Sequence record: OQ689735.1 | Origin: Escherichia phage 4E10 | Reading direction: 5' to 3' (one strand) | Length of the DNA stretch: 64,000 nucleotides | Position numbers and translations under genes: made by a program | The notes under the pieces: generated by a model | What the model was told of the DNA's origin: nothing | The model's database searches: none | The model's input: the letters and a program-made list of their open reading frames with translations, nothing else | In this document: positions 2,916-7,240 of the stretch, in pieces | Layout of the letters: each line of letters starts with the position of its first letter | How positions within the stretch are numbered: position 1 is the stretch's first letter

Positions 2916-3389
2916 TTATTTGATTTGTTTAGCAGACCAAATGCGGTCTTTAATAATTTTTTGGATGTCTTCAACATACTCAAGAGAGTGAGCATGTGGG
3001 TTATCTTTGAAACTATAAGCACGAGCTAGCTTTTGGCCTTCAGTTTTGATTACTAAAAGCTCTTTAAGGATAGCTTCATATTTGGAGATAATTCCTTTAA
3101 CAATATTTTTTTCTTGTGCAGCTTTAGGATCTGCTTTAGGAGCAGGTTTACCCGAAGCCTTTGCAAAAGCAGCGCCAGTAGCAACTAGACTTTTCCAGGC
3201 CATACTAACCGCATTTCCTGTAAATCCTTCTGCTTTCATGTCGCGAGCAAATTGGAATCGCGATTCGTCAGAAGCATCTTTATAAGAATATTTACCCGCT
3301 GCAATGGCTGCTTTTGCAACAGCTTGAATTTCGGTGCTAGATGCTTCATTTAACACCGCTTCATTTAAAAATTGAGTATATGATTTCAT
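2916..3389 (-). CDS. internal-protein-like capsid-targeted protein (CTS-bearing)
   Basis: 157-aa ORF; N-terminus MKSYTQFLNE|A matches the T4 internal-protein capsid targeting sequence with L-x-E gp21 cleavage site; own SD; bracketed by identical terminator hairpins. Confidence 0.6.
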   Translation of the reverse strand: MKSYTQFLNEAVLNEASSTEIQAVAKAAIAAGKYSYKDASDESRFQFARDMKAEGFTGNAVSMAWKSLVATGAAFAKASGKPAPKADPKAAQEKNIVKGIISKYEAILKELLVIKTEGQKLARAYSFKDNPHAHSLEYVEDIQKIIKDRIWSAKQIK

Positions 3390-3435
3390 CTTATTTCCTG
3401 TTTTAATTCGTGGATTTAATATACTACTATATTTA

Positions 3436-3470
3436 TACCAAAAAGCCCCAACCTTTCGGTCGGGGCTAAG
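3436..3470 (-). terminator. rho-independent terminator at the end of the tRNA/stable-RNA operon
   Basis: 35-bp sequence identical to 2877-2911; hairpin plus U tract on the minus strand. Confidence 0.6.
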
Positions 3471-3518
3471 CCTTGCGGCAACCTTGTCGGGGTTCCACCT
3501 GCTAAGGCAAGTGTTTGT

Positions 3519-3610
3519 ACGAAACGCCGGGATTCGAACCCGGTTATTAAGCAGTTGACGCTACTCAATATTTTTAAAAGGCCATATCTCGACCATATCC
3601 GAACGTTCCG
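3519..3610 (-). ncRNA. tRNA-like stable RNA candidate at the distal end of the tRNA operon
   Basis: perfect T-arm (CCGGG-TTCGAAT-CCCGG) at 3527-3543 and a 7-bp acceptor-like pairing between 3604-3610 and 3520-3526, but no canonical D/anticodon arms; sits between the embedded ORF and the operon terminator. Confidence 0.3.
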
Positions 3611-3776
3611 TCAAAAACGCTACTCGACTTACGGCAAAGATATTTCCTCGAATCGATAATTCGGTGCGCCGTTTCTGCTGTGATGTAAGAGGGCATCAAT
3701 AAACGCAAAGATTATTAACGCAATTCCTTACTCAGGGAACATCAGTCCGACGACTTACCGGTAGCGACCCGGTTTC

Positions 3777-4127
3777 TTAATATTCTTTTAAAGCATCAAT
3801 CTGTTTACGGCGTTCACGCCATAAATCAATTGCTTCATACGCGGATTCAGCATTTCGAATTGGACGGCATTTATATAAAGACTTGTGATTTTGATATTGC
3901 GTAGATAACGGAATTTTATCTAAAAGGTCTTTACGTTCAAAGTATTCGTAACCATCTAAGCCAAATGAACGATTTTTGAGAAATTGCCAATGACCATATT
4001 CGTTTTCGACATAAACATAATCCGCGTGTTGATAAAGCAAATTAATTACACGTTCAGAAATAATAGTGTCATTGTGATTAAAATAAAATGTTAAATCATG
4101 AACTACTAAATAAACATTACCTTTCAT
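3777..4127 (-). CDS. hypothetical protein embedded in tRNA cluster
   Basis: 116-aa ORF, ATG 16 nt downstream of tRNA-Arg 3' end with GAGGAAAA SD. Confidence 0.5.
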   Translation of the reverse strand: MKGNVYLVVHDLTFYFNHNDTIISERVINLLYQHADYVYVENEYGHWQFLKNRSFGLDGYEYFERKDLLDKIPLSTQYQNHKSLYKCRPIRNAESAYEAIDLWRERRKQIDALKEY

Positions 4128-4143
4128 ATTTTCCTCACTTAAT

Positions 4144-4219
4144 TGGTCGAGGCAGTAGGGATCGAACCTACGACCTAGGACTTAGAAGGTCCTTGCTCTT
4201 CCTTCTGAGCTATGCCCCG
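4144..4219 (-). tRNA. tRNA-Arg (anticodon UCU)
   Basis: manual fold: 7-bp acceptor, D and T arms (GGTTCGATCC), anticodon loop CUUCUAA, CCA encoded. Confidence 0.8.
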
Positions 4220-4223
4220 TAAT

Positions 4224-4299
4224 TGGGGTGACCGATGGGAGTCGAACCCATGACTACGAGAATCACAATCTCGAGTTCTACCAACTGAACTACGGCCAC
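4224..4299 (-). tRNA. tRNA-His (anticodon GUG)
   Basis: manual fold: acceptor GUGGCCG/CGGUCAC, C73, anticodon loop UUGUGAU, T arm GGTTCGACTCC, CCA encoded; no encoded G-1. Confidence 0.7.
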
Positions 4300-4412
4300 A
4301 TTAATACCTACTCCAACAATCAAGATGTCTTCACACGAAATTAAGAGAAGAGTGATCAGTTCAACCCTATAATCGCGTCAAGTAGATATTAATGTGACAG
4401 TTGTCACAAATT

Positions 4413-4487
4413 TGGCGGACGTGATAGGATTCGAACCTATAACCAATCGCTTAACAGGCGATCGCTCTGCCATTGAGCTACACATCC
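4413..4487 (-). tRNA. tRNA-Asn (anticodon GUU)
   Basis: manual fold: anticodon stem ATCGC/GCGAT, loop CUGUUAA, T arm ATAGGTTCGAATCCTAT, CCA encoded. Confidence 0.8.
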
Positions 4488-4491
4488 AAAT

Positions 4492-4578
4492 TGGTGGGGA
4501 GTGATGGAGTCGAACCACCCGAGTCGCAATGACAATGAATTTACAGTCCACACCGCTACCTCTACGGGATAACTCCCC
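4492..4578 (-). tRNA. tRNA-Tyr (anticodon GUA), long variable arm
   Basis: manual fold: acceptor GGGGAGU/ACUCCCC, anticodon loop CUGUAAA, variable arm GUCAUUGCGAC, CCA encoded. Confidence 0.7.
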
Positions 4579-4591
4579 TTAATTCTTAATT

Positions 4592-4666
4592 TGGTGGCCC
4601 TGGGTGGAATTGAACCACCATCTGGCGATTATGAGTCGCTTGCTTGAACCTTCCAGCTACAGGGCC
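4592..4666 (-). tRNA. tRNA with CAU anticodon (Met, or lysidine-modified Ile as recalled for the T4 CAU tRNA)
   Basis: manual fold: acceptor GGCCCUG/CAGGGCC, anticodon loop CUCAUAA, T arm GGTGGTTCAATTCCACC, CCA encoded. Confidence 0.75.
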
Positions 4667-4667
4667 T

Positions 4668-4743
4668 TGGTGCTGATTGACGGAATCGAACCGCCGACCT
4701 TCTCATTACAAGTGAGTTGCTCTACCTACTGAGCTAAATCAGC
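4668..4743 (-). tRNA. tRNA-Thr (anticodon UGU)
   Basis: manual fold: acceptor GCUGAUU/AAUCAGC, anticodon loop CUUGUAA, CCA encoded. Confidence 0.8.
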
Positions 4744-4748
4744 AAAAC

Positions 4749-4838
4749 TGGCGGAGGCGATAGGATTTGAACCTATGAGTCGCCGGAGCGACTGCCGGTT
4801 TTCAAGACCGGTGCATTAAACCACTCTGCCACGCCTCC
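4749..4838 (-). tRNA. tRNA-Ser (anticodon UGA), long variable arm
   Basis: manual fold: anticodon stem CCGGU/ACCGG, loop CUUGAAA; 2 nt from tRNA-Pro, consistent with a dimeric precursor. Confidence 0.8.
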
Positions 4839-4840
4839 AG

Positions 4841-4914
4841 TCTCCATACAAGGATTTGAACCTTGGACCTCCTGATCCCAAATCAGGCGCTCTACCAAAC
4901 TGAGCTACACGGAG
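4841..4914 (-). tRNA. tRNA-Pro (anticodon UGG), CCA not encoded
   Basis: manual fold: anticodon stem CCUGA/UCAGG, loop UUUGGGA; 3' trailer is not CCA. Confidence 0.75.
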
Positions 4915-4924
4915 TAAATTAAAT

Positions 4925-4998
<74 letters not shown>

Positions 4999-5003
4999 AA
5001 ATT

Positions 5004-5090
5004 TGGTGCGAGAAGTGGGACTCGAACCCACAAGGAAATCATTCCGCAGCATTTTAAGTGCTGTGCCTTTACCAATTTGACCATTCTCGC
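5004..5090 (-). tRNA. tRNA-Leu (anticodon UAA), long variable arm
   Basis: manual fold: acceptor GCGAGAA/UUCUCGC, anticodon loop CUUAAAA, CCA encoded. Confidence 0.8.
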
Positions 5091-5091
5091 G

Positions 5092-5164
5092 CTGGGAATA
5101 AAGGACTCGAACCTTTGCATCCTGGAATCAAAATCCAGTGCCTTACCAACTTGGCTAATTCCCA
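5092..5164 (-). tRNA. tRNA-Gln (anticodon UUG), CCA not encoded
   Basis: manual fold: acceptor UGGGAAU/AUUCCCA, anticodon stem CUGGA/UCCAG, loop UUUUGAU. Confidence 0.75.
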
Positions 5165-5229: not shown

Positions 5230-5260
5230 GTTAATAATAACAAATAATTCTTAAAGCATA
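5230..5260 (-). promoter_or_regulatory. candidate middle (MotA-dependent) promoter for the tRNA operon
   Basis: minus strand ATGCTTTA (MotA box), 12 bp, TATTAT (-10), about 60 bp upstream of tRNA-Gln. Confidence 0.4.
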
Positions 5261-6195: not shown

Positions 6196-6483
6196 TTACA
6201 AAAGATTTTTAGCAATAATCTTGAGATGTGCCGCAGAAATGTGTTTAGCTTTAAACAACGCAGTTTCTTCAGCAGGAGAGATAATGATTGTAGCACCATC
6301 CTTTTTAGCAGACCACCCATCACCTAGGTAAACAGTACCTTTGATTTCTTCGCCATCAACCAAGCTAATCATTGGTTTACCTTCTCGTCCTTTATTTGCT
6401 TTAATAACTTCAGAAGTAAGAGTAGCTTCAGTAATAGTAGAAACCGGGGTAGTTGTAGAAGTAAACTCTTTGAAAGTTTTCAT
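6196..6483 (-). CDS. ipI: internal protein I (capsid-packaged, injected; T4 IPI inhibits GmrSD-type restriction)
   Basis: 95-aa ORF; N-terminus MKTFKEFTSTTTPVSTITE|A gives a 19-aa propeptide and 76-aa mature product, matching T4 IPI/IPI* sizes; lies immediately upstream of 57B as in T4. Confidence 0.75.
   Translation of the reverse strand: MKTFKEFTSTTTPVSTITEATLTSEVIKANKGREGKPMISLVDGEEIKGTVYLGDGWSAKKDGATIIISPAEETALFKAKHISAAHLKIIAKNLL

Positions 6484-6555: not shown

Positions 6556-7240
<685 letters not shown>

Follow-up and report, generated by a model that had tools for sequence, protein, structure and literature searches.

Bacteriophage T4 keeps eight tRNAs, whose functionality is established, together with two further stable RNAs, rnaC (the "species 1" RNA) and rnaD (the "species 2" RNA), and no open reading frame (ORF) stands between tRNA-Arg and rnaD, which begins 1 nt after the tRNA. 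The whole T4 tRNA cluster is transcribed from a middle promoter just 5' of it, and the transcript extends to the end of the species I RNA (PMC2330249). No function has been assigned to rnaC (PMC3014915). The tRNA region of the related phage T2L, sequenced by Brok-Volchanskaya et al. in 2008, holds two ORFs for which no function was given (PMC2330249). One of these, trna.2, lies in a segment that SegB-driven homing from T4 replaces; only 0.4% of the progeny of T4 x T2L crosses keep trna.2, and 99.6% lose it (PMC2330249). More generally, hyperplastic regions in T4-like phages are regarded as carriers of adaptive genes (PMC4122927). The present analysis concerns a homologue of trna.2 in Escherichia phage 4E10.

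The window, which here means the whole 64,000-nt stretch of DNA that was analysed (record OQ689735.1), belongs to a Tequatrovirus, or T4-like phage, and is 97-100% identical to AR1, RB18 and ECO95 1-6-1, among others. Comparison of its ORFs with the T4 and AR1 annotations shows a map equivalent to the T4 segment that includes gene 3, gene 1, 57A, 57B, ipI, trna.4-.2, the tRNA cluster, and e.8-e.5.

The ORF listing gives a single reading frame at 3777..4127 on the - strand, with an ATG start, 116 codons and a stop, whose sequence is that quoted in a first-pass annotation of the same DNA. The 116-aa length, the 16-nt gap after tRNA-Arg and the Shine-Dalgarno sequence reported there are all confirmed by the ORF listing, by ARAGORN and by the sequence itself. 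The 16-nt leader between the CCA of tRNA-Arg and the AUG (4143-4128) reads 5'-AUUAAGUGAGGAAAAU-3'. It contains the Shine-Dalgarno element GAGGA (4132..4136, - strand; read from the sequence), and the GAGG at 4136-4133 is 5 nt ahead of the AUG at 4127. The initiation region has an MFE of -8.9 kcal/mol (z = -0.09 against shuffles), which is no significant structure and leaves the RBS open; RBS sequestration of the kind proposed for segB was rejected on this value.

The encoded protein matches PHROG 3355 over its full length (E 3.4e-54; ORF residues 1-115 against profile positions 1-116 of 117). Its membership in the family of T2L trna.2 and PHROG 3355 is established by this similarity and by the location between tRNA-Arg and rnaD in both Tequatrovirus and Mosigvirus. 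Identity between the window protein and its T2 counterpart is 94%, and the published primers for the trna.2 probe, #24 (GAAAGGTAATGTTTATTTAGTCGTTCATG) and #25 (CTTTTAAAGCATCAATCTGTTCACG), correspond to the first and last codons of the window ORF (PMC2330249). The gene is already known as an ORF: it was mapped in T2L in 2008 and is present in hundreds of genomes, and neither the T2L paper nor PHROG assigns it a function. Literature searches for functional studies of PHROG 3355 or of tRNA-cluster ORFs found none.

The stretch 3777-4127 is a genuine protein-coding gene under selective maintenance, conserved yet dispensable in T4-like phages. By tblastn the ORF is carried by 425 phage records, and in every one (425/425) an intact frame spans at least 80% of its length. 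Identity to the window protein is 84-100% among Tequatrovirus copies and 65-70% among Mosigvirus copies, and a few copies from Serratia, Erwinia and Pectobacterium phages are 30-40% identical (tblastn). Pairwise dN/dS is 0.03-0.17 within and between Tequatrovirus, Mosigvirus and Winklervirus copies, and synonymous sites are near saturation between genera. Because the frame is intact in all 425 records at such dN/dS values, it is more than a chance frame, and the proposal that a protein-coding gene is embedded in a stable-RNA operon holds. The G+C content of the ORF is 31%, compared with 36% for the window.

Directly 5' of the ORF is tRNA-Arg(UCU), with an encoded CCA (4144..4219, - strand; ARAGORN, and 66 bits to the Rfam tRNA model). 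It belongs to a set of 11 tRNA genes 5' of the ORF (Gln, Leu, Gly, Pro, Ser, Thr, Met/Ile-CAU, Tyr, Asn, His and Arg; 4144..5164, - strand; ARAGORN and Rfam). On the 3' side are rnaD (about 3663..3780, - strand; aligned to the annotated T4 rnaD) and the last gene of the operon, rnaC (about 3518..3656, - strand; blastn, 98% identity to the annotated T4 rnaC), the coordinates of both having been transferred from the T4 annotation by alignment. By blastn, the rnaD of the window is 99% identical to that of T4 and 100% identical to that of AR1. The earlier placement of the ORF 3' of the tRNAs was thus correct but incomplete: the ORF lies between tRNA-Arg and rnaD/rnaC, two RNAs that the first-pass annotation did not recognise. 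Alignment to T4 rnaD places the rnaD 5' end at the last base of codon 116, and the UAA stop (3779-3777) falls in the first 4 nt of rnaD. The annotated rnaD in the RB68 record overlaps the CDS by the same 4 nt. In Mosigvirus HX01 the order tRNA-Arg, ORF, rnaD, rnaC is kept, and rnaD aligns from the stop codon.

The tRNA-ORF-rnaD-rnaC unit ends in an intrinsic terminator with a U run (3444..3467, - strand), whose hairpin at 3467-3444 has a 10-bp stem with 7 GC pairs followed by TTTTT. According to the terminator scan this is the only terminator of the unit, 3' of rnaC. Promoter and terminator scans from the tRNAs through rnaC found no sigma-70-like site, no T4 late-promoter motif (TATAAATA) and no terminator. 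A candidate T4 middle promoter is positioned 5' of tRNA-Gln (5234..5258, - strand), with a MotA-box-like TGCTTTA, a 12-nt spacer and TATTAT; we take this element (5258-5234) to fit the published T4 middle-promoter consensus. It is probably the start of the transcript that carries the ORF. Since no promoter- or terminator-like site lies between the tRNAs and the ORF, co-transcription with the tRNAs, as the first-pass annotation had supposed, is the simplest reading and is consistent with the T4 operon (PMC2330249). With its stop codon inside the first 4 nt of rnaD, the ORF would therefore be best described, as far as its sequence context indicates, as a translated spacer of a polycistronic tRNA-rnaD-rnaC precursor.

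Several features of the stable RNAs are recorded here in their own right. The rnaC gene is far better conserved than the surrounding proteins: between the window and Mosigvirus HX01 it is 99% identical, and the adjacent ORF is 65% identical at the protein level. In EcS1, Karamvirus and Winklervirus, rnaC is 83-86% identical and stands ahead of tRNA-Trp or tRNA-Gly. The rnaC-aligned regions in related loci are L003 3470-3609, L007 3021-3158, L010 1090-1229 and L004 778-916. In one Mosigvirus locus (L014 3515-3608), the region that aligns with rnaC in HX01 is itself called by ARAGORN as a tRNA-like gene whose anticodon is TTA. In a 2025 experimental evolution study of the T4-like phage BW1, one convergent SNP was found in rnaD, between two hypothetical genes, in all ECOR34-adapted lines (PMC12685909); one of the BW1 genes that flank rnaD may be a homologue of the 116-aa ORF.

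Within the tRNA cluster, a 113-nt non-tRNA spacer (4300-4412, - strand) separates tRNA-Asn from tRNA-His. The spacer holds a palindrome with 7-bp arms (TGTGACA-AC-TGTCACA), is 100% identical in AR1, and has no Rfam match; RB68 has neither the spacer nor tRNA-His. The tRNA at 4592-4666 (- strand), which ARAGORN calls Met(CAT), comes right after tRNA-Thr, the position of the annotated T4 tRNA-Ile. It is probably an AUA-reading tRNA-Ile with a modified CAU anticodon rather than a methionine tRNA.

Relatives of the ORF occur in seven Tevenvirinae lineages: Tequatrovirus, Mosigvirus, Winklervirus, Mosugukvirus, EcS1, Jiaodavirus, and Karamvirus. All homologues examined are either inside the tRNA cluster or at its end. 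The gene is 16-18 nt 3' of tRNA-Arg in Tequatrovirus and Mosigvirus and 19 nt 3' of a tRNA-Met in Karamvirus, and hence starts 16-19 nt 3' of a tRNA in three genera; in Winklervirus it is about 90 nt 3' of tRNA-Thr. PM2, EcS1 and KPV15 have one or two small ORFs 3' of tRNA-Trp, tRNA-Gly or tRNA-Pro. In Mosigvirus the ORF adjoins the only two tRNAs of the genus. In a G8-like Tequatrovirus, 710 bp (L011 2196-2905) separate tRNA-Met/Ile from tRNA-Arg, which is in turn followed by the 116-aa ORF. This gap is large enough for a seg-like gene and, if one is there, seg genes and the ORF can coexist.

Profile comparison confirmed the distant members from Jiaodavirus KPV15 (96%) and Karamvirus myPSH1140 (97%), and the members from PM2, EcS1, LC53, KPV15 and myPSH1140 all match PHROG 3355. 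When 1.84 billion representative proteins were searched exhaustively by profile, the eight matches comprised one spurious repeat protein and otherwise ORFs or fragments from T4-like phages, with no bacterial or other non-phage homologue. IMG/VR sampling (7 loci) added no further lineages, and Foldseek against viral models matched only uncharacterised Straboviridae proteins. On these searches the family appears to be confined to T4-like phages. The window holds no detectable paralogue elsewhere, and a profile search through all six frames of the complete T4 genome found no homologue, the best match being a-gt.4 at E 0.21.

Because T4 lacks a copy and its tRNA-Arg abuts rnaD, tRNA maturation in T4 does not require the gene. 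The loss of the ORF from 99.6% of T4 x T2L progeny through SegB homing likewise marks it as dispensable. The ORF is found next to two tRNA-Arg variants with only 75% identity to each other, and in one Winklervirus-like contig the ORF is present and rnaC is not detectable; pairing with any one RNA is therefore not obligatory. In nature the ORF is polymorphic in its presence, which distinguishes T2-type from T4-type tRNA regions. The synteny expected for a tRNA-linked gene was found, in that the homologues of all seven lineages are in the tRNA cluster and variable placement elsewhere was not seen. However, all of these genomes are collinear and their tRNA clusters share one map position, which leaves synteny unable to tell function from inheritance. 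The constant location and the 16-19 nt spacing fit a tRNA-linked role as well as they fit collinearity.

Searches of Pfam, NCBIfam and PDB sequences with the ORF protein gave no match. The protein does not belong to the GIY-YIG Seg or HNH Mob homing endonucleases, as there is no Pfam or NCBIfam match even at E <= 1. Neither sequence nor fold places it among the enzymes of tRNA processing and repair (Pnk, RNA ligases, 2H phosphoesterases, nucleotidyltransferases, RNases), and the absence of any Pfam match likewise separates it from the anti-defence families with Pfam models, including Acb1 and IPI. Two AlphaFold models (pLDDT 67 and 72) have the same architecture, in which two beta-hairpins are packed with a helix and followed by a long C-terminal helix; residues 55-60 and 73-85, in the middle of the protein, are poorly defined. 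Several weak matches to aminoacyl-tRNA synthetase (aaRS) anticodon-binding domains in the first run were not strengthened by the better model, and this likeness was discarded. Kinship to tRNA enzymes, for which fold and profile checks had been proposed, thus found no support in any enzyme family or fold.

Four residues are invariant across the family (W47, K51, R53, F63), and ten more are nearly so (Y6, L31, D36, F49, Y62, D67, L68, L69, L84, W103). Apart from K51 and R53, the invariant residues are mostly aromatic or hydrophobic. The His/Asp/Glu-rich stretches that the first-pass annotation had flagged are not a family signature: VVHD and NHND are lost beyond close relatives, and HADY is only partly kept, so these stretches were rejected as a catalytic motif. 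With pI values of 6.2-7.0 the family proteins are close to neutral, unlike typical RNA binders, and the sequence of the ORF protein shows no hydrophobic segment suggestive of membrane insertion. The conserved K51, R53 and R107, together with the many aromatic side chains, might make up a site that binds nucleic acid or a nucleotide. A local match of 25 residues (residues 25-50) to DUF2654, the family of T4 a-gt.4, was found in 5 of 13 family members, its best score of 18.2 bits (E 0.0029) lying below the 25-bit gathering cut-off; homology was rejected on this sub-threshold match and an hhalign probability of 3.6%.

The surrounding region contains two small genes of known anti-defence function, Acb1 (anti-CBASS; T4 gene 57B; 6556-7014, - strand; Pfam E 1e-59) and IPI (internal protein, a nuclease inhibitor; 6196-6483, - strand; Pfam E 2e-53). 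The other neighbours of the ORF all match PHROGs without assigned function. Genes for seg-type endonucleases have been gained and lost within the cluster, with segB in T4 and seg-like ORFs in AR1 and RB68. On the other side of the operon, a 157-aa ORF (PHROG 2280; 2916-3389, - strand) is flanked by identical 36-nt copies of the terminator hairpin at 2876-2911 and 3435-3470, 559 bp apart. A late-promoter motif (TATAAATA) is found at 3437-3430, just 5' of this ORF, and T4 has no annotated gene at this spot. Its N-terminus, MKSYTQFLNEA, presumably resembles the capsid-targeting sequence of T4 internal proteins. The gene has the look of a cassette inserted by PeSL-type repeat-mediated recombination (PMC4122927) and may encode an internal protein that is polymorphic and injected. 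An apparent 520-bp "insertion" in AR1 relative to the window proved to be an artefact of the 36-nt terminator repeat, which the window also has.

The reading we favour, at about an even chance of being right, is that this gene of a plastic region encodes a small binding protein without enzymatic activity, in the class of host-interaction or anti-defence proteins. It is favoured by the accessory character of this region, as seen in Acb1, IPI, the turnover of seg genes, and the adaptive genes described for such regions (PMC4122927). The view of a binder rather than an enzyme rests on the absence of matches and on models of moderate confidence (pLDDT 67-72). We regard as rather unlikely a factor that acts on the tRNAs or stable RNAs, binding phage tRNAs or rnaC/rnaD and chaperoning them, protecting them (e.g., from host anticodon nucleases) or modulating their processing. 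The residence of all examined homologues in tRNA clusters across seven lineages speaks for such a factor, yet the cluster has the same map position in all Tevenvirinae and synteny is expected without any function. Mosigvirus retains the ORF beside its only two tRNAs, whereas T4 has eight tRNAs, rnaC and rnaD and lacks the family altogether. The apparent co-transcription with the RNAs agrees with a tRNA-directed role, but the preceding tRNA varies by genus (Arg, Met, Thr, Trp, Pro or Gly), the two accompanying tRNA-Arg sequences are only 75% identical, and the Winklervirus-like contig has the ORF with no detectable rnaC. Basic and aromatic residues are conserved (W47, F49, K51, R53, Y62, F63, W103, R107); the proteins are nevertheless near-neutral, and no RNA-binding or RNA-enzyme domain or fold was matched. 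In a bolder form of the same idea, unlikely in our judgement, the family would have a new fold and serve the T-even tRNA operon as its dedicated partner. It might shield tRNAs or rnaC/rnaD from anticodon nucleases, or sequester a defence signal or effector, at a dosage set by translation versus RNase processing at the rnaD 5' end. This proposal draws on the fact that the gene is never outside the tRNA cluster in seven lineages, on the conserved aromatic and basic residues, and on the lack of a known fold.

Cargo or a remnant of a mobile element, whether a homing endonuclease in decay or the helper or immunity gene of such an enzyme, is very improbable. The seg genes of T4, AR1 and RB68 all occupy the same cluster, the ORF is polymorphic in presence and is removed by SegB homing, and its G+C content is 31% in a window of 36%, but at just 116 aa it has no GIY-YIG, HNH or other nuclease domain and no flanking repeats. 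Moreover, purifying selection and a fixed position across genera that share only 22-40% identity with the window protein argue for old vertical inheritance rather than recent invasion. Scarcely credible is a non-functional or untranslated frame, kept only as a DNA spacer in the RNA precursor. Overlap of the stop with the rnaD processing site would turn processed transcripts into non-stop mRNAs, and T4 shows the gene to be dispensable; against this, dN/dS is far under 1 even though synonymous sites are saturated from genus to genus, none of the 425 copies is broken, the RBS is canonical and unstructured, and T4 needs no spacer between tRNA-Arg and rnaD.

Under the favoured reading of a small binding protein, the ORF would be made in the early/middle period from the promoter 5' of tRNA-Gln, and its mRNA would owe its two ends to the maturation of tRNA-Arg at the 3' side and of rnaD at the 5' side. 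A cut at the start of rnaD would sever the UAA stop, and RNA processing would in that case probably limit ORF expression, by analogy with the proposal for segB (PMC2330249); rnaD 5' processing in the phages that contain the ORF is assumed from T4. The product is predicted to be soluble, near-neutral and about 14 kDa, with a small beta-sheet/helix core, a long C-terminal helix and no catalytic signature. Most likely it binds a macromolecule of host or phage origin and counts among the numerous adaptive proteins of the region. Its position in the tRNA operon would provide expression and be a product of shared inheritance and homing-driven replacement rather than a sign of tRNA chemistry.

The finding adds one more conserved hypothetical protein to those of T4-like phages, which is ordinary for such genomes. 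The T2-type/T4-type polymorphism of the ORF nevertheless makes it a defined candidate for tests against tRNA-targeting and other defence systems. In addition, a stop codon placed over a stable-RNA processing site offers a small model of how translation competes with RNA maturation.

Among the described systems, Acb1 and IPI resemble the ORF as small accessory genes on the same strand, 2-3 kb upstream in the same variable region. They differ from it in that neither has sequence or fold similarity to the ORF, which by its sequence also lacks the N-terminal targeting motif of internal proteins; an anti-defence role for the ORF would be guilt by association only. The likeness to T4 segB is one of arrangement. 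Both are protein genes in the same polycistronic tRNA precursor, with no promoter near the 5' end, and both have a 3' end that abuts a stable-RNA processing site, which for segB is proposed to limit expression (PMC2330249). SegB differs in being a GIY-YIG homing endonuclease of 221 aa, and its RBS is predicted to be part of a hairpin. The 116-aa protein lacks a nuclease domain, its RBS is open, and the ORF is the allele that SegB homing removes. The closest counterpart is found in T2L. The second T2L ORF, trna.1, is absent from the window, which retains tRNA-Pro there, and a seg-like trna.1 sits between tRNA-Gly and tRNA-Ser in AR1 and RB68. T2L trna.2 is the same gene as the window ORF, a few substitutions apart, and it occupies the same spot on the map of the tRNA region, ahead of the species I/II RNA genes (PMC2330249).
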